NCBI GenBank assembly: GCA_963788655.1
Contig: CAWBHS010000050.1
Location: 1 to 64,000 of the forward strand
Direction of reading: 5' to 3'
From: an uncultured Verrucomicrobiae bacterium
Lineage (GTDB): Bacteria > Verrucomicrobiota > Verrucomicrobiia > Limisphaerales > JAFGQR01
Length of the DNA stretch: 64,000 bases
Position 1 is the stretch's first letter. Each line of letters begins with the position of its first letter. The notes under the pieces were generated by a model, which made no database searches, was not told the origin of the DNA, and worked only from the letters and a program-made list of their open reading frames with translations. The translations under genes were made by a program, and so were the position numbers. Positions 1,451 to 58,662 of this stretch are shown here, one piece after another.

Positions 1451-2677
1451 GTTTCATAGAGATTCATAAACTTCTATCTCCATTTCTTCTGGAACATCTT
1501 TTTGTCAACTGAGTGTGTTTTTTTATATCATCACCTGCAATTAAAGCAAGCGAAATCCAATTCGGATTAGAGATTTTGGCCAATTCGAAGCAGGGAGAAA
1601 CTTCGCACAAGGGTAATCCTACGCTCTTGTAACTTATCGGAAGCAATTGTGAATTAGCTTGTTCTGACGCAGAATCCGGGATTCTTGAAGAGCGAATCTC
1701 CGTCGCTGGACTATCTAAATTCACCAAGAGCAATGAAATTGAGCGCAACAAAGCTGCCGAAGCCGGAAAGTTTGGAAACGATAAAGATAAAGTGACAGGT
1801 CCAATGTATTTCCACTAAGCTGATCACGATGAGCGATGACGACCATCTGGACCGTGCCGCCAAGCCCATAAAAGACTCCGCTGGCTCGAAAACAACGGTT
1901 TCTTCAACCTGATGGGCAAGCCAGTACGCCTGAGTTGTCGCCCGTCGCCTTTCCCCGCACCAAGCCCTCTTTTAAGGGGGAGACTTCTCTGAAGCGAAAG
2001 TCGCGCGTTATGGCCCTTTGAACCGAAGTGCCACTGTGTCAACGACCAACCGCAGCATGTTGCCACTAAACCGTGACTATGCACCAACGGTAGGGCAGAG
2101 CTGCCGCTCTGCCCGGATTATTGAAAGCATCCAATTTCCTGACGGCACCACCAGCGAGTGACTGTTTAGTGAGCCGGAGCGCGGCCGGTTGGCTTTGTTT
2201 TCCTTCCTGAATATAAGGCGCCGCGGCAGCGCCGCCCTACCAGCAACTGAAATCTTACAGCTAAAGCGCTTTGGAATCGTGCCGGCCGCGGCGACTGGTG
2301 CCGCTCCATCCTGCCCACCGTCGTAATCCGGTGCGTGGAGCGGAAGCACCTTTCGCCGCGTTCGTTGGGCGGCCAAGCCCAAGGGCACAGACGTTTATCG
2401 GAGTAGCATCGGATCTCGAACTTGCTGCGATTTGTCGCTCACGAATAGTCAGGCCCTCCCGGTTATGGATGTGTAAGGTAGAAACTACACATTTGCATCG
2501 CTACACAAGCAAGCTGTCCATCAACAAATTGAGCAACTAAATATGGATTAGTGAACACCGAACTGGAAGGTTTTCATTACGCTCGATTGAAAGTTGCTCC
2601 TGCCTGGCGGTAAATGATAACATCTATTGCTTTGGTGACAAACGACTTGGAATGCAAGCGCCAGCGCCTCCTGCCCA

Positions 2678-2694
2678 TTGGCACCGATATTGCG
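2678..2694 (+). promoter_or_regulatory. sigma-54 (-24/-12) promoter
   Basis: TGGCAC-CGATA-TTGC consensus about 100 nt upstream of the VPDSG-CTERM gene. Confidence 0.7.
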
Positions 2695-2797
2695 CAAATA
2701 CCTACGGTTTAGGCTTTGCCTTCGGCGGCGGAGCAAACGTGCCCTACTCAGAGGGAAGACCAAACAGTAAAAAGCTCAAATTGAAAGAAGAGAAGTT

Positions 2798-3444
2798 ATG
2801 ATGCGGAAATTTTTAGCAATAGCGAGTGTGGCGGGAACGATGGGGATTTTGACGAATGCTCAGGCGGTCGCCACAGTTACCGTTTATGATGGTTTAACCA
2901 CACAGGTTTTTCCGGACACCGACGGTGATGGGTTTCTGACTTTCAGTGGCAGTATCGGTGTTTGGAGTTTCTCTTCAACACTGCTGAATCAAAGGACACA
3001 GTTGGAAGTGCCACAGATCCCAGGATCGGACGTTCTGTTTGATGAGCACCGCCGCGGGAACGCTAACGATAAGGTGGTACGATAGGATTCGGTGACTTCA
3101 CCGGCAGTTTTGTGTCTGAGGTCGGACGTTTACGCTGCAGGATAAGCTTGATTAAACACTTATTACGCGAGCGACAATTCGGTGCCGCCTGGCACGTTGC
3201 TAACGCACAGCGAAATACCAACTGGTGGAGTGTATAATGACACGCAAATTGTAAATCTCGGGTGACTTTGAATAATCCTTTCTCGCTGATGCAGGAATTG
3301 ATAATTGATCATACGGCTGCTGGAGACAGCGGAGGTGACGCCAAACTGCAAAACACCGTTCCAGATGGTGGCAGCACATTATTGCTGTTTGGCAGTGCGG
3401 TTGGGCTTCTGGGTTTTGTTAACTGGCGTTGCAAGAGGCAGTAG
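2798..3444 (+). CDS. VPDSG-CTERM sorting domain protein (frameshifted)
   Basis: Signal peptide MRKFLAIASVAG... in ORF 2798; C-terminal VPDGGSTLLLFGSAVGLLGFVNWRCKRQ in ORF 3262-3444. Confidence 0.8.
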
Positions 3445-3473
3445 GCTGTTACCTTTCAATGATAGCTTTTAAC

Positions 3474-3507
3474 CGAAAGGCCGCTCGATTGAGCGGCCTT
3501 TCGCTTT
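3474..3507 (+). terminator. intrinsic terminator
   Basis: Perfect 13-bp stem CGAAAGGCCGCTC/GAGCGGCCTTTCG, 4-nt loop, short T run. Confidence 0.75.
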
Positions 3508-3681
3508 ATACGAATGCCAGAATCAGATTCCAAAGCCGCTGTTTTTGGAGCTCCGGAGTGTTTAGGGGCGCGGGAGAAATTAAGGAGCCCAAAGGCCGAA
3601 GCGCTACACGAATGCCCGAAGACGTTTATTGATTCCATCGTGCGTACGCAGCGGATCGGCCGTTCTTTGGTGGTTCGGGAC

Positions 3682-3865
3682 GTAAAGGGGTCAGTTCTCA
3701 CAATCGACAACAGACGGAACATCCAAGTCCGTGAGATGAACTGCCCCGGAGTGCGCCCCCGTCCTCGGGCGCGGCAATCGCCGCAGTAAAGGGGTCAGTT
3801 CTCACAATCGATAAAGTGACAGGTTCAAAGCTTTGATAAAGTGACAGGTTCATAGTTATTGACAT
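3682..3865 (+). repeat. direct repeats upstream of RAYT
   Basis: GTAAAGGGGTCAGTTCTCACAATCGA at 3682-3707 and 3786-3811; GATAAAGTGACAGGTTCA at 3810 and 3835. Confidence 0.9.
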
Positions 3866-3898
3866 GCTTTCCTCGGTTTCCGGCACACTGATTCCCCT

Positions 3899-4872
3899 AT
3901 GAGAATGGCACGAATCAAAGTTTACGGGCGAAGTGCGGTGTATCACTGCATGTCGCGAGTGGTGGCTGGACAAGCCTTGCTGGATGACCTCGGCAAGGAG
4001 CAGCTCGTTAAAATCCTCTTCTCGCTGGCCACGTTCTGCGGAATCGAGGTAATCACTTACTGCATGATGTCCAACCACTTCCATATCCTTGTGCGGGTGC
4101 CGGAGCAGCAGAACCCATCCGGACCAGGAACTGGTCGAGCGACTGGAAGCCCTGTACGGCCCAAGAAAGGCGCTTGGGTGCAATTAGCCCGGCAATGGAC
4201 TGGCAAATCATGGCGGCGTGGACCAAGACATCCGGAAGGAATGTTGGAGCGAATGGGTAGACGTATCGGCGTTCATGAAGGAACTCAAACAGCGGTTTAG
4301 CCGCTGGTATAACCGGCAGACCGGACGGTTCGGCACCCTGTGGGCCGAGCGGTTCAAAAGCGTATTGGTGGAGGATCACCCGGCGAACGTCGAAACCCTG
4401 GCGGCCTATATTGACCTGAATCCAGTGCGCGCGGGATTGGTGTGAGGATCCCAAGGATTATCGCTTTTGCGGTTACGCCGAAGCGTTGGCGGGCAACAAG
4501 GTCGCTCAGGCCGGAATGATGAGTTTCCAAAAGCCTAAAGAATGGAAGAAAGCCGCCGCGGAATATCGCAAACGGTTATTTGTGGGCGCCGGCGTTGCGG
4601 GCCGAAGTGACAAAGCGCTATTGGACCGAGCGAAAATCAAACGCGTGCTGGCCCAGGGCGGGGAATTGAGTCCGGCCCAAATCCTGCGATTGCGTCTGCG
4701 ACACATGACCGATGGCGTCGTGCTGGGATCGAAGTCCTTTGTGAACGAGATGTTTGCCTTGCATCGTGAGAAATTCGGTCTCAAGCGGCGAACCGGAGCG
4801 CGTCCAATCCGGGGTGTCCCATTGGCGGGACTGAGTGCCTTGCGCGATCTCCGGGTGAGCACGGTAACGTAA
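3899..4872 (+). mobile_element. REP-associated tyrosine transposase (RAYT / Y1 HUH), frameshifted
   Basis: YHCMSR, YCMMSNHFH (HUH), GTLWAERFKS and AYIDLNPVRAG motifs spread over three ORF pieces. Confidence 0.9.
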
Positions 4873-5264
4873 GACAGTCCATGACTTCAGCATGCTCAGC
4901 GGCTCGAAAATCCGAAGCTCGAATACTGAAATCCAAAAGCAATCCGAAATCCGATTCGCAAAAATAGTTCCAGCACCAGGGGCAAGCGCAGTGTCCAACC
5001 AAAATGCGCATTACCTGAACCGTCGCTTGACCGCGTAGAACAAACGTCTCGGCCATCCCGAATGTCCAGGAGTCTCTCCTCGGTTGATTTAGATTCCGCG
5101 GTAGAGGTAGGCGCCTGTTTTGAGGTTCGGAAACGGCGAGTACGCTGTCCTACCAACGCGGCCCGCGCGCTGCAACGCAGGACGGCCAGCTTGGCTATGG
5201 GCGAAATGGCCGGGCTCTGCACTTTGCTTTTGAAGTCGGTGGCTGGCTGCGGCATGCTCCGGCC

Positions 5265-5478
5265 ATGTCGAATGGCCGCCTTTCGGGTTTGGACATCTTG
5301 ATCGTCGAGGATGAGCTTATGCTGCGCAAACGGCTGTCTGCTCAACTCGAACGCCTCGGCGCCAACGTCACCACCGCGGAAACGTTGCAGGCGGCGCGGA
5401 CGTTCTGCGCCAACATGGGATTTATTTCGTTACTGCTCGACGTGAACCTGCCGGACGGCACCGGCACTGATTTGCTGA
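5265..5478 (+). pseudogene. response regulator receiver domain, truncated by a RAYT-derived repeat
   Basis: ILIVEDE...LLLDVNLPDGTGTDLL, then an abrupt switch to the ATAAAAGTGACAGG repeat. Confidence 0.75.
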
Positions 5479-5723
5479 ATAAAAGTGACAGGTTCAAAGT
5501 TTTGACGCCATTTCCTCCTTGCCGGCGGAGTGATCTCACCGATTTGATTGGCACAAAGCAATGTTTACGGGCGAAGTGCGGCGAATCACGCCCGGTCGCG
5601 AGTGTTAGCTGGACCAGCCTGGTTGGGATGTCTTCACCAAGGAGCAACTCTTAAAAGCACTCTTCACTTGCCCCGTTTTGCTGCCGTCGAAGTCATCACT
5701 TACTGCCTGATGTCCAACCACTT
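5479..5723 (+). repeat. degenerate copy of RAYT 5' end (corresponds to 3836-4080)
   Basis: Colinear similarity from ATAAAGTGACAGG to ...TGATGTCCAACCACTT. Confidence 0.85.
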
Positions 5724-5789
5724 AGCCGTGCCTATTCCATTCAACCACGAATGGCGAATAAACACGAATCCACCCTGCGACTCTGATCG

Positions 5790-6032
5790 ATAAAGTGACA
5801 GGTTCAAAGTTGTTGACACCCTTTCCTCGTTGCCGGTGGAGTGATCTCATCGTTCTGATTGGCACGAATCAATGTTTACGGACGAAGTGCGGTGAATCAC
5901 TGCCAGTCGCAAATGGTGGCTGGACCAGCTTGATTGGACAACCTCGGCAAAGAGCAACTCTAAAAAGCTCTCTTCTTCCGCCCCGTTCTGCCGCGTCGAA
6001 GTCATCACTTACTGCCTGATGTCCAATCACTT
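5790..6032 (+). repeat. degenerate copy of RAYT 5' end
   Basis: Same start and end as the 5479 copy; part of a ~310-bp tandem duplication. Confidence 0.85.
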
Positions 6033-6216
6033 AGCTGTGCCTATTCAATTTTATCACGAATGAACACGAATCCAGCCTGCGACTCTGATCGTGTATTGAA
6101 CGAAAACAGAGGCTCACCGAACGGTGATTCATGAATCAACGGCCAAAAGGCTCATTTGGCCCTGCCATTCGTGTCGATTCGTGTTCATTCGTAGTTTTCT
6201 TTTTGCATAGTTACAG

Positions 6217-6372
6217 CTCCGTCGAGCCCAAATTCCCCCATTCCCAACCGTCCGCAGCGCTGATGGCGGGAACGGTCAGGCGGTTCGAACGTCAAGGACC
6301 TGCCAAGTTTACGCCACAGGTGTCGGGAATACGCGGAGGAGAAATCAGGGCTCGACGGAGTCTCGCCCTACC
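6217..6372. repeat. REPIN-like inverted pair of GTAG REP (GGTAGGGCGAGACTCCGTCGAGCCC family)
   Basis: CTCCGTCGAGCCC...GGGCTCGACGGAGTCTCGCCCTACC; the same unit recurs at 8123-8285 and the right arm at 11391-11415. Confidence 0.8.
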
Positions 6373-6564
6373 GCAGGGGGATGTTCTCCGACGTGGAGAG
6401 ACAACAAACACCCGCCCAAAACCGGTCCGGTGGAGGGAACTTCTAGCGATAAAGTGGCCGATTCAAAGTCTTTTCGCTAAACCGAATCCGTTCCGAAGGG
6501 ACGGGTGAGCCGCGTGGACCTGGATTGCGTTGCAATGGCAAATTCATCTCCGATCCGAACGCCG

Positions 6565-6776
6565 TTATTCTTGAGGCGGCGGGGCGCGTAGAAAACTTAC
6601 GTCCTCCAAGTCTTTCGGACGGGCCACGGCTTTCTTGTTTCGGATGAGCATCGTCAGCCCTAAATAACCGCTTCGCCGCCCACGACCACGTACCGCACCC
6701 GATGTCGATGCAGCGCGGTGATGAAGTCGAGGATGTCCGGTGAAAAGTAGGCCGCGTCTAACGAGTCCGATGGCAT
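6565..6776 (-). pseudogene. nucleotidyltransferase-like gene with internal deletion
   Basis: N-terminus MPSDSLDAAYFSPDILDFITALHRHRVRYVVVGGEAVI joined directly, out of frame, to C-terminal YLGLTMLIRNKKAVARPKDLED. Confidence 0.65.
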
Positions 6777-6928
6777 GCGCGCACATCTTTCGGATGGGGC
6801 CCGTAAACGCGCTCCTTGAGCCGTCGGGCGATGGCCCATCGCTCTTGCGGCGTCATCCGAATCTGCTGTTGCCGATCCCAGGCGGCCGCTTCCTGGAAAC
6901 TCTTTGACCGATGAATCACCCGTTCCAT
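6758..6928 (-). CDS. small hypothetical protein, probable partner of the nucleotidyltransferase
   Basis: MERVIHRSKSFQEAAAWDRQQQIRMTPQERWAIA (MTPxER motif), overlapping the downstream gene start. Confidence 0.55.
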   Translation of the reverse strand: MERVIHRSKSFQEAAAWDRQQQIRMTPQERWAIARRLKERVYGPHPKDVRACHRTR

Positions 6929-7247
6929 GCCGAACATTCTAGCGGATTGTGCCGTCTTGAAAAGGGGAAAGTCTCCAACGCTGCGCAAATCACGGGTTCC
7001 TCCCACACCTCCAAACTCAGACAACCGGAACGTGATGCTGCATGACGGTCAGCCAAGCTTGCCTCCGCGGAGGTTTTTCTCTCTCTTTTCGAGGTTTTAG
7101 CTGTTTCTATGCAGTTGAACAGGAGCTATCCGGCGCTCGCCCTCGAGCGGAGGTTCTTTGGTTGTCCGGGACCGGCGAGACGCGCTGTCCTACCCGGCTT
7201 CAAGAAGCGGGTTGACAAGAAGATTGTCGCCGGAAGATGTTAGCCCC

Positions 7248-7685
7248 ATGGGCAAGGTCATCGTAAAATTGAAATTGACTAATCTGTTTGACTTGGCGTT
7301 GCAAAACCGGGGCGTCACCAAGAAAAAGCCGCGTCAGGTGGAAGTGCAAGCGTTGGTGGACACGGGAGCGACGCGGCTTTATCTGAAGCCCTCGGTCATC
7401 AAGAAACTGGGGTTGCAGCGGGTGGATGCGGTCCGTTCATACACCACCAACGGGGAAACGATCCGCTACAAATACGAGCCGGTGCAGCTTGAGTTGATGG
7501 GCCGCAAAGAGAATTTTGACGTGATCGAAGTGCCCGAGTCGGTCCCTAACTTGCTGGGGCAAGTGCCCCTCGAAGTGCTGGATTTAGTCGTGGACAGCAA
7601 GCGCCAGATACTCATCGCCAATCCCGCGCACGGTGGCGAGCAGATGACGGAGGAGTATGCACTGGGCGAAGCGGTGACCCGTTGA
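7248..7685 (+). CDS. clan AA aspartic protease (retroviral-like, AF_0612 type)
   Basis: ALVDTGAT and LLGQVPLEVLDLVVD motifs. Confidence 0.85.
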   Translation: MGKVIVKLKLTNLFDLALQNRGVTKKKPRQVEVQALVDTGATRLYLKPSVIKKLGLQRVDAVRSYTTNGETIRYKYEPVQLELMGRKENFDVIEVPESVPNLLGQVPLEVLDLVVDSKRQILIANPAHGGEQMTEEYALGEAVTR

Positions 7686-7687
7686 AA

Positions 7688-7930
7688 TTAAAGTGACAGG
7701 TTCAAAGCTTTGACGCTCTTTCCACGTTGCTGGCGGAGTGATCTCACCGATGTGATTGGCACGAATCAAATGTTTACGGGCGAAGGGCGGCGAATCACTG
7801 CTGGTTGCAAAGGTTGGCAGGACAAGCCTTGCCGGATAACTTCGCCAAGGAGCAACTCTTAAAAGCTCTCTTCGCCCGCCACGTTCCGCTACGTCGATGT
7901 CATCACTTACTGCCTGATGTCCAATCACTT
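7688..7930 (+). repeat. degenerate copy of RAYT 5' end
   Basis: TAAAGTGACAGGTTCAAAG...TGATGTCCAATCACTT. Confidence 0.85.
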
Positions 7931-8427
7931 AGCCGTGTCTATGCAGTTGAACCGGAGGAAACGGAGACAACCGAGGCGGGAGAACGGCCTGAAAGGGCGT
8001 TTTGAGGCGTCGGAGCGGAATGACCGAACGCTTCAGCCGGCGTCGTCCTTTCAAGATTCAAAATCACTCTGCGTTTTCTCTGTTATCTCTGTTGTCTCCT
8101 GTTCCCAACTGAATTGTTACGGCTCCGTCGAGCCCAAACTTCCCCTCATCATTCCCAAGCATTCGAGGCGGTGACAGGCGGGAAAGGTCAGGCGGTTCGA
8201 ACGTCAAGGACCAGCCAAGGTTTACGCCATACGTGTCGGGACCGCGCGGAGGAGAGATCAGGGCTCGACCGAGTCTCGCCCTACCGCAAGGGTCTGTTCT
8301 CCCGTGTTCCATCGCGCTCAGTGTTCTCCGTTTCCTCCTGTTCAACGCCGCTATCCAGCGCTCGCCATTGAGCGGGAATTCTTTGGTTGTCCGGACCGGC
8401 GAGACGCCGCTCGGAGCAACGTGTCGT

Positions 8428-8865
8428 TCAGAGTCTTTCCGGAAGCACGCGCAAATTGGCGGCGGCGGCCACCGCCCGGAACTGGGGATGAAACGAGCAA
8501 TAATGGGTCGCGCCACCGGCAACGGCCAACCCAGCATGCAGAAACATCATGGGAGTGAATTTCGGATTCGGGGCCTGCCGATTCATGCCGATGGCCAGCC
8601 GCAAGCCGCTGTCCCAATCCACCGTCACCAACTGGAAGACTCCCTCGGCAAAGTGATGGTCCCAATCCCGCTTGCCTTGTTGGCCGGCAGGCGCCGAAGG
8701 CTCACTGAGCTGGGCTTTGAACAGCAAATGCTCGATTTGGAGGATGTGCAGGGCGTGCAAGAGATAGGGCGCCGGAAACTTCCGAATCAGATGCCAAGCG
8801 CGGGATGAGCCACTGGTCTTCAACACCAACGTGGCCAGAAAACCCGGCTCAAGATACGGACTCAT
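8428..8865 (-). CDS. PIN/VapC-like protein with atypical active-site residues
   Basis: 145 aa, overlaps the upstream antitoxin; PIN-like spacing (YLEPGFL...LHAGLAVAGGATHYCSF). Confidence 0.6.
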   Translation of the reverse strand: MSPYLEPGFLATLVLKTSGSSRAWHLIRKFPAPYLLHALHILQIEHLLFKAQLSEPSAPAGQQGKRDWDHHFAEGVFQLVTVDWDSGLRLAIGMNRQAPNPKFTPMMFLHAGLAVAGGATHYCSFHPQFRAVAAAANLRVLPERL

Positions 8866-9085
8866 AGAGTTGCTCGATCAGTCGGTCGCCTACGGTCGTC
8901 GGGTACGTGTGTCGGGTCACCCGCGTCAGAAAATTGGGTCGTTTTACGGTGGGTTGGGCCAGTTTTTCAAAGCGAGCCACTGGCTTGCCATGTACGGTTA
9001 CCGTGATGGCTTGGCCCGGCTTCAACGCTTCGGTAATCTCCTTCCGACGCCGGTCAAATTCTCGGGCGGAAATGTGCTGTTTCAT
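8849..9085 (-). CDS. Phd/YefM-family antitoxin
   Basis: ISAREF...EALKPGQAITVTVHGKPVARF. Confidence 0.75.
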   Translation of the reverse strand: MKQHISAREFDRRRKEITEALKPGQAITVTVHGKPVARFEKLAQPTVKRPNFLTRVTRHTYPTTVGDRLIEQLYESVS

Positions 9086-10100
9086 TGTCTGACAATTTGT
9101 CAGGCTTTTGAAGGAATGTCAACGGCTCACCAAATGCGGGATCATTTGCCACCCATTGAAGGCCTGAGGGCATGAACCTCTGGGGGCACGAACCTGAAAC
9201 CGGCAGTAGCATTGACCACGGAAGCAGATTTCGCGGATGCAGATCTCTGGCCGCCCGAAGCATCACTCAGGTGGCTCACCATACCAACGACCAATTTGTT
9301 CCAGCTAATTTCTTCTCCATCCGTGCCATCCTGCAATGCGTGGTTCCAACTGCTCCAATTAGGTGATTGGTTACCTCCATGCAATCACACTGGTTGGCGA
9401 GGCGCCAACCCGTGCGCCCGAGGCGGGCGCGCTCCCCCTTTTGCATTTCAAAAATCCGAGAACTGGTAGGGACGCGTTCCACCGTGTCCCCCTTTTCTCC
9501 GCGGAACAAACGTCCACCGCAGTCCGGCCAAAGGGACATTTTTAGCGCGTCGGGATCTCCCTGGTGGCGGTTCCTGCGTTGGCAGTCGCCCGGCGGAGAG
9601 ATCAAGGACGGAGTGAAATCCGTTCTTATTCCTCTTCCCGTTCAAGATGGGACTTAAACCGAAGCGGGGACATTCCTATCCGCTCATGCCGCAGCCCCAT
9701 CCCCGCCGAGCGGACAGGAATGTCCGCGCTTCAATTCAATTCCGCATTAGCCCCAACTTGAATGCAAAATGGAATTACCAAAACCAGGTAGGGATGCCGG
9801 CCGGCGCGTCCACAGATTCAAAAAGTCAGGGACGCAGTGAAATGAGTCCCTACCGTTCCTTAAAACGTATTGGGATCCCGGCTATTGTAGAATAATGACG
9901 GTTGACCAGCTCTGTTCTCACTGAATGTCAACCACTGCGCCCGAGGGCGGGCGCGCTCCCCTTTTCAACGGGCAGTCACGGCACAACCATCGGCACTGAC
10001 ATCGGTAATATGGGGTCAGATATTGCCGCAATGAGTCGCATAACTAATTGACTGCAAACACTTGCCATACCTTGTTACATCGGCAATAATATCGGCAAAA

Positions 10101-11315
10101 ATGACCAAGCGAATTGCCAACAAGGTGCTTTTCGACAACCCCTCGGACATGGAGCCGCTATTGCCCGGAACCGACGGGCTATTATCCGCTTCAGCGTTGG
10201 CAATTATCCGAGGCGCCGAACGTCTCCGCTCATCACTCCATCCCTTCACTGGCAAGCTGGTGGCGGACGTGGTGCGCTCGATGAATAGTTATTATTCGAA
10301 TCTCATCGAAGGCCACCGCACCAGACCAAGGGACATTGACGCGGCCATCCGGAAGGATTTTTCTGCGAATCCCGCGCAGCGGTCGCTGCAAATCCAGCAT
10401 GTGGCTCACATGGAGGTTCAGGCGGAAATGGAAGCGCGTTTGCCCAATCTGGGGGGCGAGGAGGTCTGTTCGGCGGAGTTCCTGTGTTGGCTACACTCGG
10501 AATTCTATCGTCGGCTGCCGGAAGAGTTCCGCCAGGTCGCAGATGAGCAGGGTAAGCGTCATGAAGTTGAACCTGGCAAACTGCGGCACGACGAGGTGAG
10601 TGTGGGCCGGCACCTGGCGCCCGCCTGTCGGAAGCTTAACGTGTTTCTCCAGCGTTTCGCGGATTTCTACGGTCCTTTGGTAACGACCGAACCGGATAGC
10701 CTGGTCGCGGCCGCCGCGGCGCATCATCGCCTCGCTTGGATTCATCCCTTTCTGGATGGCAACGGCCGAGTAACGCGGCTGTTCACCCAGGCGTGGTTGG
10801 TCAAAGCCGCCGCAGACAGCGATGGTCTGTGGACCATCTCCCGCGGTCTGGCGCGGCAGCGATCCGAATATCAAGTGACCTTGGCCAATGCCGACGCAAA
10901 ACGCACCAATGAGTTTGATGGCCGTGGCTATCTCTCGCAACGCTACCTGGGACAATTCTGTCGGTTTTTCCTGGCCACAGCCGTTGATCAAATTCAGTTC
11001 ATGCAGGAGCTCCTGGCTCTGGACGGCATGCTCAACCGTATCATCGGTTACGCCGAACGAAGGGAATCCGCTCAAGAATTGCCCAAAGGATCGGCCTTGG
11101 TGCTTCGGGATATCTTTCTTCGTGGTAAAATCACCCGCGGCGAGGTGGCTCGGGTCATCGGCGCCTCGCCCCGAACCGCTCAAAAAGTCACTGGCGAGTT
11201 GCTCCAACAACGACTGGTCGCCTCCAACTCCCCCAAAGGTCCGCTGCACCTGGGGGTTCCGGGGGCTGCGGCCAGCCATTACTTCCCCAACCTGTATCCC
11301 GCCGGTGCGGATTGA
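10101..11315 (+). CDS. Fic family protein
   Basis: HPFLDGNGRVTR Fic motif; SNLIEG motif near the N-terminus. Confidence 0.92.
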   Translation: MTKRIANKVLFDNPSDMEPLLPGTDGLLSASALAIIRGAERLRSSLHPFTGKLVADVVRSMNSYYSNLIEGHRTRPRDIDAAIRKDFSANPAQRSLQIQHVAHMEVQAEMEARLPNLGGEEVCSAEFLCWLHSEFYRRLPEEFRQVADEQGKRHEVEPGKLRHDEVSVGRHLAPACRKLNVFLQRFADFYGPLVTTEPDSLVAAAAAHHRLAWIHPFLDGNGRVTRLFTQAWLVKAAADSDGLWTISRGLARQRSEYQVTLANADAKRTNEFDGRGYLSQRYLGQFCRFFLATAVDQIQFMQELLALDGMLNRIIGYAERRESAQELPKGSALVLRDIFLRGKITRGEVARVIGASPRTAQKVTGELLQQRLVASNSPKGPLHLGVPGAAASHYFPNLYPAGAD

Positions 11316-11488
11316 TGATCAGGTGGTTCGAACCTCAAGGATCTTTCAGGTTTACGCGATATGTGCAGGGAACGGGCGGTGGAGAAACCAGGGCTCGACG
11401 GAGTCTCGCCCTACCGCAAGGGGATGTTCTCCCTCCGTGGAGACGACTACCAAGGGGACGAACCTCTCATTGGACTGAAGACGGGCAG

Positions 11489-12640
11489 TCAGGGAAAGAG
11501 CCCTTTCATCCCCGAGGGCAGCGCTTTGATCGGAACGACACTGATTCGTTCGTGCAAGGGATAGCGGCGGTTGCCGGGATAAATGACCGCAATCTGGTCC
11601 AGCTTCAAATCCTCCAGCGCGATCCGCATCGACGGCGTCAAGCGCGGGGCATCTGCCCGCTTAAACTCGACCCCGAGCTTTCGTCCCGCTTTCACCATCA
11701 CCAAATCAATCTCTGCTCCGGCGTGAGTGCCCCAAAAATAAGCTTCATCCGGCTCGGTCGCGTGGAGCGTTTCCTCCAGCGCATAGCCTTCCCACGAGGC
11801 ACCGGATTTCGGGTGGGCCAACAAATCCTTGGTGGAACGGATGCCCAGCAGTTGGTGCAGCAAGCCGCTGTCGCGGAAATAAATCTTGGGCGCTTTGATC
11901 TGTCGTTTGCCCAGGTTGGCATGCCAAGGCGGCAACTGGCGCACCATGAACACGCCCGTGAGAATGTCGAGGTAGCGGCGCACGGTCGTTTCGCTGACGC
12001 CCAGGGAGCGCGCCGGTTCGGCGGCGTTCCACGTCTGCCCGTGATAATGGGCCAGCATCGTCCAAAACCGCAGCAGGGCCACCGCCGGCGCGCCGATGCC
12101 CCATTGCGGCAAGTCTCGCTCCAAAAACGTTTGGATGAAATGCCTGCGCCAGGCCAGACTGTCAGCCTCCGTCCGCGCCAGAAACGACAACGGCAATCCG
12201 CCACGCAGCCAATGGCGGGAATGTTTCTCCACGCCCAACTCGTCCAGGTTGAACCCGCCCATTGGAATCGTCTCCATCCGTCCCGCCAGCGACTCTGACG
12301 ATTGGCGCATCAGATCCGGCGATGCGCTCCCCAAGATCAGAAAATGCGTGCGCAGCGGGTTACGGTCCACCAGGACCCGCAACACCGGGAACAATTCCGG
12401 CCGCCGCTGGATTTCGTCAATCACCACCAATCCCGTCAAATCCCGCAACGCGGTCAGCGGTTCATCCAGCCGCGCAAGACTGACCGGGTCTTCCAGGTCA
12501 AAGTAATTGGGCGAATCGGTCGTGAGGAATTGTCGGGCCAGCGTGGTCTTGCCACATTGCCGTGGGCCGATTAATGCCGCCACGCGGCTGCGGCGCAAGG
12601 CCGCCTGCACCTGACTTCGCCATCCGGCACGTTTGATCAT
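11489..12640 (-). CDS. AAA_14 / DUF4143 ATP-binding protein
   Basis: GPRQCGKTT, IDEIQ, LGSAS, KIYFRDSG, EIDL..GVEFK. Confidence 0.9.
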   Translation of the reverse strand: MIKRAGWRSQVQAALRRSRVAALIGPRQCGKTTLARQFLTTDSPNYFDLEDPVSLARLDEPLTALRDLTGLVVIDEIQRRPELFPVLRVLVDRNPLRTHFLILGSASPDLMRQSSESLAGRMETIPMGGFNLDELGVEKHSRHWLRGGLPLSFLARTEADSLAWRRHFIQTFLERDLPQWGIGAPAVALLRFWTMLAHYHGQTWNAAEPARSLGVSETTVRRYLDILTGVFMVRQLPPWHANLGKRQIKAPKIYFRDSGLLHQLLGIRSTKDLLAHPKSGASWEGYALEETLHATEPDEAYFWGTHAGAEIDLVMVKAGRKLGVEFKRADAPRLTPSMRIALEDLKLDQIAVIYPGNRRYPLHERISVVPIKALPSGMKGLFP

Positions 12641-12652
12641 GCCTTAAAGGCT

Positions 12653-12691
12653 ACCTTGAAAATCCAAAGTCGAATAGCGGAATTTCAAGGT
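12653..12691. promoter_or_regulatory. palindromic operator-like site upstream of AAA_14 gene
   Basis: ACCTTGAAAATCC-N13-GGAATTTCAAGGT (one mismatch). Confidence 0.5.
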
Positions 12692-12712
12692 GTGAGTTGG
12701 AGCCGCCTGGTG

Positions 12713-12779
12713 ATAAATAAAGTGACATAAAGTGACCCGTTTAAAGTTTGATACCCTTTCCTCCTTGCCGGCGGAGTGA
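12713..12779 (+). repeat. short stuttered copy of RAYT 5' end
   Basis: ATAAATAAAGTGACATAAAGTGACCCG...TTTCCTCCTTGCCGGCGGAGTGA. Confidence 0.75.
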
Positions 12780-12780
12780 G

Positions 12781-13113
12781 CTGGTGGACACGGGAGCGAC
12801 GCGACTTTATCTGAAGCCCTCGGTCATCAAGAAACTGGGATTGCAGCGGGTGGATGCGGTCCGTTCATACACCACCAACGGAGAAACGATCCGCTACAAA
12901 TACGAGCCGGTGCAGCTTGAATTGATGGGCCGCAATGAAAATTTTGACGTGATCGAAGTGCCAGAATCTGTCCCTAACTTGCTGGGGCAAGTGCCCCTCG
13001 AGGTGCTGGATTTGGTGGTGGACAGCAAGCGCCAGATACTCATCGCCAATCCCGCGCACGGTGACGAGCAGATGACGGAGGAGTATGCACAGGGCGAAGC
13101 GGTGACCCGTTGA
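12781..13113 (+). pseudogene. 5'-truncated near-identical duplicate of the aspartic protease
   Basis: Almost identical to ~7353-7685, beginning at LVDTGAT. Confidence 0.85.
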
Positions 13114-20897: not shown

Positions 20898-23294
20898 TCA
20901 TCGCTCGTTGAACTGCACGTAATCAAGCCGGCCGGCTTCCGCGCCATCGCTCTGGACATCCACTCGAATTTCGTCCCCGCGGCGGATGATGACGTCTCGG
21001 ACTGTGTGGCTCTTCCAACCACGGCCTTCGCCCGGCGATTCCCAGGGCTCCGCCTTGGGCGACGCGGTTGACGAATAACGCGAACCGGGCGCGCGAGCCA
21101 TTTACATCGAGGTAGCGAATATCCACGTCGTAATGGCCAATGTCGCTTGTGAACGGTTCGTCGAATGGCGTTCGAATGCTACCAGTCGCGGCGCTCGACC
21201 AGCTTGACGTTGAGACGTTGCGAAGCGTTCCGGTCGTTGCGGTCCTCCAATGCAAAGCCATCGAAGTGGCGGAAGTTCTCGGCTTCAAGCCGCACCTGTT
21301 TTCGTGCTGCGACCGACGCCGGAGAAGTGCATGCTTCGCGATAAGCCGTTTGAGTTTTGTCGGGTCGCACTCTTCATCGCCCGTGACAAGGAACCAGGTC
21401 ATTCCGGCGTCGGATGGGTCGGGACGGGTCGAAACGAGCATGCGCTCCCAGAGCCAATGAACCTTTGCGTCGTGCGAATTGCGCATCCAGAAATACGGCG
21501 CGAATTCTTTCGGCGTGGACGGCTGACCGTAGCGGCCGAAACTCAACCGTCGGTTCTGGTCCTGAATCTGCACCCAGTGGACATCCTGCTCGATCACGCT
21601 CCGCTTCGTGTAGGAGAATTTGTATTGGGACGCGAACCCGTCGTTCCACCGACTGTGCGAGATGCAATAGACAAACTGACGATTGGCCGGATCGGACTTT
21701 TGGATGCCCAGATACGGAACTTCCATTGGACCGGCGATGATGAAATAGAGTGGATTCGAGCGCCGAGGATTTATTGATAGCCTTGGCGATGTTGGCCACG
21801 GCAGCGTCGAGGTTTTTGCGGCAATCGAAGAATCGTGACTGGTCAAAACCGAAGCGTTCCGCCGCCCCGAGCACGCTCTCGGTGTGTGTCTTTTCCCAGG
21901 TCGGATCTGTCTGCGGCAGAATGGAATTATAGCCGAAGTGGACCAAGTGATCCTTGACGCCGGCTGCGGCGAGAATCGCCAGCGTCATTGGCGAGGCAAT
22001 CCAGTCGTCTCGGTCATTGTGGTTGCCGTCACAACTGTAGGCGATGCGGCCTTGGAAGGTCTGCCCGTCGAAGGGGAACGCCCGCGCCGGCGGCGCCGCG
22101 CGAGACCGGCCCGGCTCGCGCGGCGCTGGGGTCTCGACTACCGCAGCCATCATCCGCTTCCACAACTCGTGATAGTATTCCGGATGCTCGTTAAGCATTC
22201 TGGTCCGGTCCCAATCGCACCACCACCATGTCCTGGCTGGGCACGACGAAGCACGCCTGCTTGCCCCAACCAGACATGTAAAAGGCGTCGCGCGGAGCGG
22301 CGTTACCCAATCCTTGTCCCGTGTGGTTGTTCCACCAGAGACGACCGTAATACTGGTTGGCCTGCGGTTCGAAGGCAAAGTTCGGCTGGCGCCAGGTGCT
22401 CTTTTCCAAGGTCGAATCGCGATGGGTGAACGCGTCAATGCGTTCGGCCTCGATAACCTGGCGGCGTTGGCCGTCCTTTTCCCAAGCGCCATGGTGCAGC
22501 GCCAGGTAACCCACCCGGGCCAGTTCCCGCGCCGGAAATCGCGCGCCACCTTGCGGCCCGCCGGAACCGCCGGCGTGCCCGCTGAACTGGCCCCACTTTA
22601 CCGGCGCCGCGCCGATGGCGGCATTGATTTCCTGGTCGAAGAACTGGTCCAGTTTGCGACCGCTGACGTTCTCCAGAATCAGGCTGAACATGTCCACGGG
22701 AACTGAGGCATAAGCCCAAACGGCTCCTGGCGGCGCCTCGACTTTTTGCGCGAACACCTGGTCAAGGTAGTCGGCCTTGTAGGGACCGTCATACGGCGTC
22801 AGTCCCGAAGTCATCGTGAGCAGGTGCCGAAGGCGAATTTGTTTCCGCGCCGGTTCGGCTTCGGCCCATTGCGCCGGAAGAAACCGCCACGCCTCATCGT
22901 CGAGGCCGATGCGTTTGGGCAGTTGGCCGGTGTCGCTCAGGTCAAACAGCTTCGCCATGGCCAGCGCCGTGAGCGACTTGGTGCAGGACGCGATGCCGCG
23001 CGCGTCGGTAAAGTTTCTCCACTCGCCCGCAATCCAGCCGTGTCGGATGATCAGCAGGGAATTTGGCGTCTTGAAACTCGCCGTGTAGCGCCAGGCTTCG
23101 GCGAGTTTGTCCCAATCCAAACCGGTGCGCTCACGCACGGCCTGCTTTTGTTCTGCGGATGGCATTGCGTTAACCGGCACCAGCGTGCGCCAGCCGCCCT
23201 GGCGCTCTGGTGGCGGGAAATAAGTCTCCACACCACGTGCATAGATCGAGGCAAACAAGCAGGAGGCGCCAACGAAATAGATTAGGGCATTCAT
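20898..23294 (-). CDS. secreted multidomain serine hydrolase (beta-lactamase fold + Asp-rich domain + CBM-like), frameshifted
   Basis: IASCTKS, LLTMTSG, VVVRLG; continues across frameshifts (~22195, ~21770, ~21320, ~21060) into SCDGNHNDRDDW and a beta-sandwich ending RLDYVQF. Confidence 0.65.
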
Positions 23295-33963: not shown

Positions 33964-34218
33964 ATTGGCCCTCTGTTCGACTGGACACTGGGAATTACTC
34001 CTGCGCTCTAATCTGTGGCCGCGGATAGGTGGAGCGAGACTCCGCTGAGACCCGACTTCTCCGTGTTGCATCTGCCGCCCCGGCTGCGTCCACGCGGAAA
34101 GCTGAATTCAGCAATTGGCTTTCTTTCGGTTTTCGGCCTTCGGTCTTCGGTTCTTTGGAAACGAAGACCTCGGCTTGGCGCTTGAAAAACCACCGGCCGT
34201 GCCGTTCAATGCCCGGCC

Positions 34219-36847: not shown

Positions 36848-36906
36848 AACGAGTTAAGAAGGATACTGATTCATAGAGCGCCTTGTGGCCAGGCCAACCC
36901 AACCCC

Positions 36907-37020
36907 GGTAGGGCGAGACTCCGTCGAGCCCTGAATTCTCCGAAGCACCAGCGGTGATCAAGTGACTGACGAATGGGAAAGCCTGTAGCGTTCGAAGTTC
37001 AGGGCTCGACGGAGTCTCCC
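36907..37020. repeat. GTAG REP inverted pair between convergent genes
   Basis: GGTAGGGCGAGACTCCGTCGAGCCCTGAA ... TTCAGGGCTCGACGGAGTCTC. Confidence 0.85.
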
Positions 37021-37117
37021 CGCGATGCCAGTACCATGTATCCGACAGCATCAGGACAGTCAGGCTGACGATCCGGCATACCGGCATCCGGCATCCGAGC
37101 ATCCTTCCTCCAGCTTC

Positions 37118-52693: not shown

Positions 52694-52786
52694 GCCCAAC
52701 GTCCCGCATCAGTGACCCCGCGCCACTGATGCTCAGATTGAAACCGCAGCGCCCTCGCGGGGTTCGCTGCATGCGGTTCGTTAGAC
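52694..52786 (-). repeat. attC site
   Basis: R'' GTCTAAC...R' GTTGGGC; imperfect palindrome CCGCATGCAGCGAACCCCGCG/CGCGGGGTCACTGATGCGG. Confidence 0.85.
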
Positions 52787-53112: not shown

Positions 53113-53213
53113 GTCTAACGACAAGACCAGCGACGGGAGCCAGCCGCCCCTGATGTTCGATTTGTGTCTGCGCTGAACGGCTGGCTCCCGTTCGCTGAAC
53201 CGTTTGGTTGAAC
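53113..53213 (-). repeat. attC site
   Basis: R'' GTTCAAC...R' GTTAGAC; arms CAGCGAACGGGAGCCAGCCG/CGGCTGGCTCCCGTCGCTG. Confidence 0.88.
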
Positions 53214-53516
53214 AATCTCTTCATCTTTGGCCGCCGAGCTTATCGCATCATAGGGAAGCAGGAGCGTGTCGATCGCCAAGGAAATCGGCAAATCAACGAT
53301 CCCCACAATACAAGCGCCTGCCTTCTTCCCGGCTGACCCCTGGAAAGAGCTACGGCAAGGTGCCGTGATCAGACCGCCATCGACGCAGGTTGCAGCATAT
53401 ACAGGGGGGAATGGTTCGCTAAGCTCGTGACGCCACGACGTTCTGGTAGCGATGGTCCCACATCCCGTGCAGAGGCAGACAAGGCTGGCCGAGACAATGC
53501 AAAAACAGGCTTTCAC
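53115..53516 (-). CDS. cassette gene, YceK/YidQ-family lipoprotein
   Basis: Lipobox CTGCGTI; VDLPISLAIDTLLLPYD. Confidence 0.75.
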   Translation of the reverse strand: MKACFCIVSASLVCLCTGCGTIATRTSWRHELSEPFPPVYAATCVDGGLITAPCRSSFQGSAGKKAGACIVGIVDLPISLAIDTLLLPYDAISSAAKDEEIVQPNGSANGSQPFSADTNRTSGAAGSRRWSCR

Positions 53517-53524
53517 AAGTATGC

Positions 53525-55744
53525 ACCGGGTAGGTGCAGGCGGTTAGCCCGCCCACACCCCCCTAAGAACCGTGCGTGAAAGTTTCCCTTCACACGGCTC
53601 AAGCCTTTCTAAGGACACGCCCGTGCGGGGTGTCCCGGCAATCTGTTGGATTAACGTCAGCATCCTGAGGCCCCTTATACGCTCGCCAGGACCATTCGAC
53701 CAGTCCTTTCGCACGGCAAGGTCCGCCACGCAAAACAGCGGCGGCGCTCAAAATACTGGGTGTAGTTCCGGGTCGTAGGGAGTTGGCCTCCCCCCGGACC
53801 TTGATATGACGTTCCAACACCGGTGCGGGCAATGGAATACAGTCGCAGCACCTTTGCTTCCCCGGTGCGCGGTCCGCATCGCGGGCGAAGAATCCCCAAG
53901 TGGTCTCCGATGGCTGAAGTATTTGCGCTTCAGCCAACGCGTAGGATTTCTTGGGATGTCGTCCGCCGCGCCCAGCGCAGGAGCTGGTAGCGGACGATTC
54001 GTTCCATGCGCCAAAACGCTTCGGCCGAACAGCACGTGGCGATGATAGTTGGCCCAGCCCCGAAGCATCGGGTTGAGCTTTCGGATCAGCGTTTCCGCGC
54101 GTTTGTCCGACCGCGCGTTTGATGCACTCGCGGATTTTCTGCACCAACGCCTTCACCCCGTCCTTGGCGGGTTTGATGAGCAGTTTGTTCCCGTATTTGC
54201 GCACGTTCTGTCCCAGAAAGTTGAACCCCGTTTCGTATGTGGGTGATCACGGTCTTTTGCTCGGAGAGTTCCAGACCGCGTTCGGCCAGGAAGGCCACCA
54301 CGGCGGGTTTGACGATCTGTTCGAGGGTTTCGCGTTTGCGGGCGGTCACCACGAAGTCATCCGCGTAACGGATGAAGTTGACCTGGTCGCGTCGTATTTT
54401 GATCCGGCTGCGGATCGCCGCTTCCATTCCGTCCAACGTCAGGTTGGCAAGGAGGGGCGAAATAATCCCGCCCTGTGGGGTGCCTTCCAGCGTCGGGAAC
54501 AGACGGCCTTTTTCCCAGTAGCCAGCCTCCAGCCATTGGCGTAGCATCCTCTTGTCCATCGGAATGGACTTGAGAAGCCACGCGTGGCTGATCCGGTCGA
54601 AACAGGCTTTGATGTCGCCTTCGAGCACCCAGACCGGCGCGTAGCTTTTGGCCAGTGCGCAGAAGCACTGGCCGATGGCGTCGGCGCAGGAGCGGCCTTC
54701 CCGGAACCCGTAGGAGTTGCGGTCGCCGAGGGTTTCGGCGATGGGTTTGAGGGCCAGCGCGTGGAGCGCTTGCATGGCGCGGTCCCGCAGGGTGGGGATG
54801 CTCAACGGGCGCAGCTTGCCGTTTTTCTTGGGATGTAGTGCCGGCGCAAGGGTAGCGGCCGGTAACCACGACGTTTCAGGTTCTGTACTGCGGTGAATTT
54901 CTGTCTGTCAGTCCTCCATATCACGTTGTCCACACCGGGGGTTTTGGCCCCCTTGTTTCCCGTCACCCGCTTGACGGCCAAAAGCTTGGCCGAGCGCGAG
55001 TGGGTGAGCAGCCACGACAGGGCTTTGGCCTTGCCGTGTTGTCCTGCTCGGATTGCCTTTGCAATACGCAACTGTAGCCTCCTGACATCACGCCGGACTT
55101 TGGGCCAATCAATGGCTTTCCAGTTCGACGCTTTGTTGGAGGACGCACCAAAGGATCGCTCCTTCGTCATTTGCTTTTCCTCCTCAAGGATGGTTCGACG
55201 GTTTCTCTTGCAAAGAGAGACCTGACCGACGTGGGCATATCCGGTCGCATTACACACCGGCCTTGGCTTGTTCGGTCTTCTCAATGCTGCCTCCGCTTCC
55301 CTGCCTTGCGGTTGGGGCGGCCACGACCGGCGTGGCCCGGAGCGACAGCGTTTCCATGTTCTGCATTCGATACGGGAGAGGTTAGGTCCGCTCTGCTACA
55401 CCGGCAGTGCTTGTGAGTGTGCGCCGGGCCACGTTAGACAACCCGGACTCGACTGCTTGCCATTTTGGCTCGAGCCTTGAACAGCCTCTTATGGCTCGTT
55501 TCTCTTGACGATGCTTAAAAGCGTTTATTGGTTTAACCATACTCTCGGACTCTAGCGCTCCCCCGGCTTGAGGCTGCCAGGTTCGCTACATTACCGGGAA
55601 GGCTTCATACCCCTGACAGTAGATCTCGACGATCGGACAGCCCGCCAGACGCATGCTTCCGTGGAGTACCTGCGGACACACGCAGGGCTTGGTCAGGATT
55701 CATAACTCCCGCCAAGCAGTACCGAATACAACTTCATGTCACAA
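53525..55744 (-). mobile_element. group II intron (probably IIB / chloroplast-like class) inserted in attC R'
   Basis: 5' end TTGTGACATG; domain V GAGCCGTGTGAAGGGAAACTTTCACGCACGGTTC; domain VI ending CCTACCCGGT; removal restores GTTAG|GC. Confidence 0.9.
53675..55170 (-). CDS. ltrA: group II intron reverse transcriptase/maturase (frameshifted, no HNH domain seen)
   Basis: WKAIDW..VRRLQLRIAKA, TPGVD, IPTLRDRAMQ, GTPQGGIISPLLAN, RYADDF, LRGWANY; strong RBS GAGGAGG. Confidence 0.92.
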
Positions 55745-55838
55745 CTAACGGTCAGGTCACCGACGGCGGCCCCTCCGTGACTCCCGAGTTGCCCGGCGGC
55801 CTTACGGGGCCGCCATTCGGTGAACTGGCTGGTTCGGT
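55745..55838 (-). repeat. attC site interrupted by the intron
   Basis: R'' ACCGAAC; arms TCACCGAATGGCGGCCCC/GGGGCCGCCGTCGGTGA; R' GTTAG|GC. Confidence 0.85.
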
Positions 55839-56120
55839 GATGATCCTCAATTTCCAGAAGCGGTAACTAGCTCCGAGGGCAAAACCAACCGTCGCCAACG
55901 CCAGGAAAAACAGGCCGAGGCTCTCAATGGCATTCTCGCGCGTATTCAATCCAAATATCTCCGCAAATCTCTGGACCGTATCGCCAACGAGACAGATCGG
56001 AAAACCAACCAGCATAGCAATGATCGCGATGGTCAAGCCGGACCAGACAGCCGAACCAAGCAACGCACTGGTGTGGGGTGTTGTCATAAGTGACGCATCA
56101 CGCCAAACGATAGAACTCAC
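55752..56120 (-). CDS. cassette gene, small membrane protein
   Basis: GTG start overlapping the upstream core site; 2 TM segments; reads into attC. Confidence 0.6.
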   Translation of the reverse strand: MSSIVWRDASLMTTPHTSALLGSAVWSGLTIAIIAMLVGFPICLVGDTVQRFAEIFGLNTRENAIESLGLFFLALATVGFALGASYRFWKLRIITEPASSPNGGPVRPPGNSGVTEGPPSVT

Positions 56121-58491: not shown

Positions 58492-58662
58492 GGTAGGGCG
58501 AGACTCCGTCGAGCCGTGATTTCCCAGAGCGTGTCCGCCCAATCAATTACCGCGCAGAGGAAGATCATTGATATTCGAACACCGAAGGCTTCCCGCGTTG
58601 ACATTGTCGGGCAGGTGGAAACGACGCGGAAAAACTTGGGCTCGACTGAGTCTCGTCCTACC
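58492..58662. repeat. GTAG REP inverted pair
   Basis: GGTAGGGCGAGACTCCGTCGAGCC ... GGGCTCGACTGAGTCTCGTCCTACC. Confidence 0.85.

Follow-up and report, generated by a model that had tools for sequence, protein, structure and literature searches.

A sense-oriented group II intron with a probable CL1-type reverse transcriptase in an attC site of a verrucomicrobial cassette cluster, and its attC-associated relatives

The attC sites of integrons were, to our knowledge, known until 2021 as a target of class C group II introns only, which lie antisense to the gene cassettes and read the attC hairpin. Here we analyzed a group II intron that splits an attC site in the orientation of the cassettes, at positions 53525-55744 (minus strand) of a 64,000-nt stretch of DNA, hereafter the window (positions 1 to 64,000 of contig CAWBHS010000050.1, assembly GCA_963788655.1, from an uncultured Verrucomicrobiae bacterium). 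The group IIC-attC introns (S.ma.I2 and relatives) are, like the candidate lineage described below, endonuclease-less (En-less) and specialized on attC, but they have a class C reverse transcriptase (RT) and RNA, lie antisense to the cassettes and occupy the bottom strand at R'' (TTGT/T); they also have a 3-4 bp exon-binding site 1 (EBS1) and no EBS2, and use the attC hairpin as the recognition element (PMC7923331; PMC4424553). In the accessible text of the review by Zimmerly and Semper (2015; PMC4424553), attC targeting is listed for class C only. An unusual IIC intron in an integron of Enterobacter cloacae occupies the attC top strand in cassette orientation, but it is of class C (cited in PMC7923331). 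EcI5 and Th.e.I3/T.el4h, which have a chloroplast-like 1 (CL1) RT and IIB1 RNA, share with the window intron the order RVT_N-RT-X and recognition through EBS1 and, as seen in its relatives, EBS2, whereas their targets are ordinary sequences, not attC, and their ends are the canonical GUGYG..AY (PMC8643678).

The described intron nearest to this locus is UHB.I2 (Sonbol and Siam, 2021, Mob DNA 12:8, PMC7923331), found on a metagenome contig from a hypersaline soda lake, with IIB1 RNA, a CL1 RT and the ends 5'-UUGCG..GU-3'. It has the same orientation as the cassettes; its position is given as 'immediately after' an attC, its exons as poorly conserved and its EBS3 bulge as missing. By the published coordinates the predicted attC, c(7295..7364), and the intron, c(5096..7296), share 2 nt (PMC7923331). 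A first-pass annotation of the window, made from the sequence alone, had left it in doubt whether attC introns in the same orientation were undescribed; one is thus in print, while we found no other paper on such introns in the literature searched, in which UHB.I2 was named in PMC7923331 alone. In its accessible portions, that paper claims neither lineage-wide targeting nor a pairing of EBS1 with the R' core for UHB.I2. The likeness extends to the intron ends (UUGCG..GU against UUGUG..GU in the window; the relative L002 has UUGCG..GU), to the 2-nt overlap of attC and intron, which recurs where the attC matched by our covariance model R1 overlaps the window intron, and to size (2,201 nt against 2,220 nt for the introns; 500 aa for the intron-encoded protein (IEP) against 494 aa in intact relatives of the window protein); the two RTs appear colinear by eye. 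With UUGYG..GU ends, sense orientation, an R' box overlapping the first two intron bases and an En-less IEP of about 500 aa, the window intron fits a UHB.I2-like set. Since UHB.I2 has already been described (PMC7923331), the window intron is not new in kind; it is a new, probably decayed member. We consider it likely that it is a retrohomed copy of an En-less CL1/IIB1 intron, inserted in sense in the attC top strand of a cluster of three attC sites without an integrase in the window.

The element has domain V, domain VI with a bulged A, domain I and an RT/maturase open reading frame (ORF) in domain IV, as a group II intron should. In Rfam, domains V-VI matched RF00029 at 53525-53602 (minus strand; 62 bits, cut-off 40), and part of domain I matched RF02012, group-II-D1D4-7, at 55555-55687 (minus strand; 60.6 bits, cut-off 34). 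The last 81 nt of the intron folded into a 34-nt domain V with an AGC triad and a GAAA loop (53567-53600, minus strand; also within the Rfam match) and a domain VI (53528-53563, minus strand) whose single bulged A, at 53531, is the 7th base from the 3' end (minimum free energy -47.7 kcal/mol, z -5.72). The intron ends were set at 55744 and 53525 because the homology with relatives breaks there (alignments A1 and A2). At the 5' boundary, likeness to the close relatives L001, L002 and L004 (handles with L denote the loci of relatives) begins at CGTTAG|TTGTGAC, and at the 3' boundary it stops directly after CCTACCCGGT in all six of the six sequences compared. The intron so delimited is 2,220 nt long, runs from 5'-UUGUG to CCUACCCGGU-3', and is 86.7% identical in DNA to the intron of L001, a Limisphaerales metagenome-assembled genome (MAG), and 85.1% identical to that of L002, a Verrucomicrobiae MAG.

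The 5' end UUGUG, which had been pointed out as TTGTG in the first-pass annotation, is a variant of the consensus GUGYG. Among loci L001-L077, position 1 (55744 in the window) covaried with the penultimate base (53526 in the window), a U or C going with G and a G going with A. The last three bases are GGU in all 14 U-starting introns whose 3' end is known and also in three C-starting introns, and the penultimate base is A in 11 of 12 G-starting introns. A contact between the first and the penultimate intron bases is known, and the covariation fits that contact, for which it provides a clean natural data set.

When the intron was excised by script, 55838..55745 joined to 53524..53523 gave a 96-nt imperfect hairpin, ACCGAAC ... 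GTTAG|GC (-23.8 kcal/mol). The earlier proposal that the R' box is split as CGTTAG|GC and that removal of 53525-55744 restores GTTAGGC was thereby borne out, as the restored site folds as an attC. The 5' part of the split attC (55745-55838, minus strand) consists of R'' ACCGAAC, the L''/L' hairpin and R' up to GTTAG; it was recognized from its fold, from alignment A3 and from R1 (67 bits over 55743-55838), and overlaps the 3' end of the ORF at 55752-56120. The last two bases of the box, GC at 53523-53524 (minus strand), open the 3' exon according to the sequence and the junction alignment, which puts the insertion point inside the R' core, past its 5th base. Two further attC sites are unoccupied, one at 53113-53213 (minus strand; R' GTTAGAC; R1 100.1 bits) and the other at 52694-52786 (minus strand; R' GTTGGGC; R1 54 bits, also found by a rule-based scan). 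R1 was built from nine aligned attC sites that included all three sites of the window, so that these three scores are those of training-set members; in the alignment of the nine attC-like sites, compensatory changes occurred at 11 of the 14 pairs of the L''-L' helix. Our own rule-based scan was too noisy (34 and 42 matches per strand against 10-20 in five shuffles). The downstream cassette ORF (53115-53516, minus strand) starts 9 nt past the intron and encodes a 133-aa lipoprotein-like protein with a weak YceK/DUF1375 match. As had been proposed, intron, attC top strand and cassette ORFs all lie on the minus strand.

An R1 search of 44-64 kb of the window, with filters off included, returned no attC beyond the three sites, and no integron integrase was found in the window, either among ORFs of at least 130 aa or by tblastn with the integrase of L002 (best E 0.15 over 26 aa); the cluster therefore comprises three sites and lacks an integrase in the window. 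The 7-mer GTTAGGC occurs once in the window, where chance would give 4.06 occurrences, and by itself it is uninformative because its count is not above chance. We had at an early stage read the locus as containing no integron, on the grounds that intI was absent, GTTAGGC was below chance and a generic repeat search gave no attC family. That reading was dropped, being overturned by the array 3' of the L002 intron, where short ORFs alternate with repeats, each about 100 nt long and built as RYYYAAC ... hairpin ... GTTRRRY. L002 carries a complete integron, with an integrase at 1580-2608 (minus strand; TIGR02249, 476.9 bits, cut-off 265) divergent from the array and eight attC sites at 2700-8545, the second of which holds the intron. 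Further array members were found by R1 in L001, L002, L004, L036 and L054. The repeats of the window have the R''/R' boxes, the imperfect L''/L' hairpin and the same-strand array between short ORFs that characterize attC sites.

The last six bases of the 5' exon, CGTTAG at -6 to -1 (55745-55750, minus strand), form the intron-binding site 1 (IBS1), and their exact complement, CTAACG (CUAACG in the RNA), lies at 55437-55432 in a domain I hairpin (55424-55446, minus strand; CCGGGTT-GTCTAACGT-GGCCCGG), which the first-pass annotation had suggested to be EBS1. Because this hairpin, folded alone, was no better than shuffles (z -0.28), the role of its loop was tested by comparison, for which 30 5' junctions were placed by profile and domain I was aligned. 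The columns of the CTAACG loop and exon positions -1 to -6 were paired in 91.7% of cells over the 30 junctions, while the next best column window and offset reached 0.61; on this covariation evidence the loop is EBS1. Compensatory EBS1/IBS1 changes occurred in attC and non-attC targets alike. Examples at attC targets are L032 (CGAACG/CGTTCG), L077 (CCTAAC/GTTAGG) and L054 (GCGAAC/GTTCGC); a further one is L006 (CTGAC/GGTCAG), and those outside attC include L034 (GTATAG/CTATAC) and L016 (GAACAT/ATGTTC). The EBS2 position sits directly past a conserved CGT and, placed by homology, reads CAAGAG in the window (55502-55507, minus strand). It forms 6-8 bp pairings in L015, L016, L017, L018, L019, L062 and L064; in L019 and L062, of a Geobacter-like sub-lineage, it reads CAUGAG(C) and pairs with CTTATG, the spacer of the attC. 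The CAAGA of the window is, by eye, complementary at four of five bases to the spacer GCTTG, which is frequent in the attC sites of relatives (TGAGCTTGGTCGTTAG). A scan for EBS2 in a fixed column across the junctions gave no signal.

The attC might be found mainly by its folded hairpin, as in the IIC-attC introns, with EBS1 doing no more than fixing the exact cut. Such recognition would account for attC being kept as the target while EBS1 changes (CUAACG, UAACGG, CGAACG, GCGAAC, CCUAAC, UAUAAC) and would suit an EBS2 that is unmatched in the lineage of the window copy, and PMC7923331 raises the same idea for UHB.I2. However, the cut moves in step with the EBS1 of each intron, falling past base 4, 5 or 6 of the GTT (R') box, and the EBS1 pairing is nearly complete in every case; the pairing of EBS2 with the CTTATG spacer in L019 and L062 also speaks against reliance on the hairpin. 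We therefore hold recognition mainly by the hairpin to be unlikely, and favor reading of the R' core by base pairing.

The copies of the window, L001, L002 and L003 could also descend vertically from a single old insertion at an orthologous locus. The gene directly 3' of the intron starts, judged by eye, with a lipoprotein-type signal peptide in all four, which would agree with common descent; the proteins are without tblastn similarity. But tblastn of eight flanking ORFs of the window against 79 loci gave only matches of 27-32 aa to attC repeats and one 30% match of 102 aa, and the 5' exons differ outside the 3' end of the attC, so that a shared orthologous insertion seems quite improbable beside separate retrohoming into attC sites.

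To the 30 junctions, 24 more were added (profile start at most 2), which made 54; three with at most 3 nt of exon were set aside, leaving 51 that were judged. An attC label was given to 21 of these 51. R1, untrained on them, ended at the intron 5' end and on the same strand at 10 junctions (L001, L002, L032, L040, L041, L045, L051 twice, L054 and L077; 31 sources searched), and EBS1 covaried with these exons, so the expectation of the first-pass annotation that the 5' exons of close homologues are attC sites was supported. In a maximum-likelihood tree of 51 RTs, from which the broken RT of the window and L051_8736 (an ORF cut by the locus end) were left out, all 19 attC-labelled rows fell in one clade of 23 (ultrafast bootstrap (UFBoot)/SH-like approximate likelihood ratio test (SH-aLRT) 99/99), and none of the 28 rows outside the clade lies in an attC. 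The window copy belongs to this clade, which as a whole uses attC R' boxes as its target apart from four rows. HNH was without a match in all 15 of the clade RTs tested and was present in six of seven outside it. The clade occurs in MAGs labelled Verrucomicrobiota, Thermodesulfobacteriota, Pseudomonadota, Bacteroidota, Rokuibacteriota, Moduliflexota and Acidobacteriota, that is, in at least seven phyla, and many of its introns have the unusual boundary pair U1...G(penultimate).

Two side observations concern the junctions themselves. In L038 (5592-5603) the 3' exon opens with GCCCAAC, so that a box resembling R'' adjoins the split R' box; this suggests back-to-back attC sites or an empty cassette. 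In L051, introns lie head to tail at 3357/3358 and 5582/5583, the second directly after the first and the third after the second.

That an ordinary IIB intron without any specialization landed in the attC by chance might be entertained for an IBS1 of only 6 nt and a GTTAGGC that alone is not above chance. This account is very improbable, as 21 of the 51 judged junctions end in a GTT box, all labelled tree rows are in one clade and the independent R1 matches end exactly at the junctions. For the wider proposal, we see an even chance that the window intron belongs to a monophyletic En-less CL1/IIB1 'IIB-attC' clade that is specialized on the attC top strand, spans at least seven phyla, has had EBS1 retuned in each sub-branch, couples the mobility of intron and integron, and has UHB.I2 as its sole published member, not recognized as a lineage. 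A specialization on attC throughout a lineage of this kind appears not to have been recognized in the literature searched.

The RT/maturase gene (53675-55170, minus strand) was delineated from its ORF pieces, from Pfam/NCBIfam scans and by tblastn with P0001; it is frameshifted and encodes RVT_N (E 1e-30), RVT_1 (E 1.3e-36) and what is left of GIIM. Within domain IV the ORF begins at 55170, TIGR04416 matches the protein in part, and the Pfam/NCBIfam scans gave no match to HNH in any RT fragment, in agreement with the N-terminus and the missing HNH described before. Among solved structures the closest match is 6ME0_C, which is the RT of T.el4h (Th.e.I3; E 2.5e-72), followed by LtrA (2.6e-26) and GsI-IIC (1.3e-21). 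Th.e.I3/T.el4h is classed as a IIB1 intron with a CL1 RT in PMC8643678, and this classing together with the structural ranking excludes class C and makes a CL1-type RT with IIB1-type RNA the best assignment, which is in line with the earlier guess of a lineage outside IIC, probably IIB/chloroplast-like. A class C (IIC-attC) intron would likewise lie in an attC and be without an endonuclease domain, but its probability is negligible, given an E-value for the IIC RT 50 orders of magnitude worse than for the CL1 RT, a sense insertion in the top strand at R' and not in the bottom strand at R'', a 34-nt domain V and relatives with an EBS2 loop. The first-pass annotation had named a class IIC RT, a CTAACG loop away from the EBS1 position and homologues mostly outside attC as results that would count against it; none of the three was found, and its reading is supported.

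Metagenomes contain many intact relatives of the RT: 7,840 of the 7,999 proteins scored reached E <= 1e-30. The 120 relatives listed were 78-92% identical, mostly 494 aa long, and had RVT_N, RVT_1 and GIIM but no HNH according to precomputed domains; one of these 120 was verrucomicrobial by name. In the plasmid collection, where 1,808 records scored at E <= 1e-30, there was no close relative, the best reaching 63.5% identity over the RT core.

The RT gene of the window copy has at least four breaks as judged from its reading frames, the ORF pieces lying in frames 0, 1, 0, 2 and 1. Comparison with L001 and L002 shows 12 indels between 54829 and 53769, all but one within the last third of the ORF. 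Eleven of the indels are single- or double-base insertions, many beside CG dinucleotides, and long ORFs elsewhere in the window are intact. The ribozyme parts domain V, domain VI and EBS1 are kept. The window copy is thus probably a relic, immobile by itself unless the indels are assembly errors, and both its splicing and its movement would need an RT from another copy.

The steps that we propose for its arrival build on what is known of En-less intron mobility (PMC4424553). The ribonucleoprotein would reverse-splice into the single-stranded attC top strand, and a replication fork would provide the priming, because the RT is without an HNH nuclease. In its sense orientation the promoterless intron would be transcribed from the cassette promoter and then be spliced out of the cassette mRNA. 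RmInt1, an En-less intron of class D, is likewise expected to use single-stranded DNA at replication forks, but its target is an insertion sequence, not attC. Integron integrases cut at G|TT, and the insertion lies 3' of this crossover; this would make the intron part of the downstream cassette, and it might be carried as the 5' end of that cassette if the site still recombines.

Several points weigh against the picture of a retrohomed copy from a lineage specialized on attC. Of EBS1, EBS2 and EBS3, which the first-pass annotation had wished to see confirmed, only the first gave a clear signal in the window copy. EBS2 does not pair with its own exon in the window, L001, L002 and L004 copies, and no column paired with position +1 as EBS3 should, the best reaching 0.61 over 18 junctions. 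The second and third attC sites are empty even though their CGTTAG and CGTTGG could each pair with EBS1. The attC labels are uneven in kind: 11 of the 21 depend on R1, one of these being the window site, a training member; that of L013 depends on three more copies of the exon end within the locus; those of L019, L021, L025, L038 and L062 on R''/R' boxes and a hairpin fold; and those of L004, L042, L027 and L063 mainly on a ...CGTTA/GTTAT end motif. A simple R'' search was unconvincing for L013, L027, L063, L004 and L042, and blastn-short of 14 5' exons found repeated attCs in L013, L040/L041 and L019/L062 only. Four clade rows, L034, L037, L022 and L051_3358, are not in attCs, the last sitting in another intron. 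The indels of the RT gene may be consensus or assembly errors in a multi-copy element instead of decay. Finally, insertion into single-stranded DNA at a replication fork and carriage by the integrase are steps that we infer, and the GC skew of the window, computed as a guide to the replication strand, is flat (-0.006).

Elsewhere in the window, a repeat cluster at 1788-13081 contains a 25-nt unit, TAAAGTGACAGGTTCAAAG, in eight copies along with families of 57-180 nt, a 300-nt repeat pair of 96% identity (7354-7653 and 12782-13081) and fragments matching an IS200-like Y1 transposase. The motif GGGCGAGACTCCGTCGAGCC occurs at 58492-58662, 36904-37021 and 34025-34064, in both orientations and with a 24-nt inverted pair 123 nt apart, and is unrelated to the attC family. 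A 367-aa ORF at 22191-23294 (minus strand) matches the Pfam Beta-lactamase family (serine hydrolase fold). Its neighbors are genes for glycoside hydrolases and sulfatases; it lies 30 kb away from the attC sites and does not belong to the cassettes.

For annotation the practical value of these results is modest: pipelines should allow for IIB introns within attC sites, whose R' box they conceal from programs that search for attC. For the biology of integrons, the clade would be a second, unrelated intron lineage that uses attC, in the opposite orientation to the first and with the R' core read by base pairing. It would also give group II intron research a natural example of an En-less IIB lineage whose DNA target is, by its design, single-stranded. 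Its members would be sense-oriented, spliceable insertions that split the recombination core of the attC, and they may fuse cassettes or ride with them.

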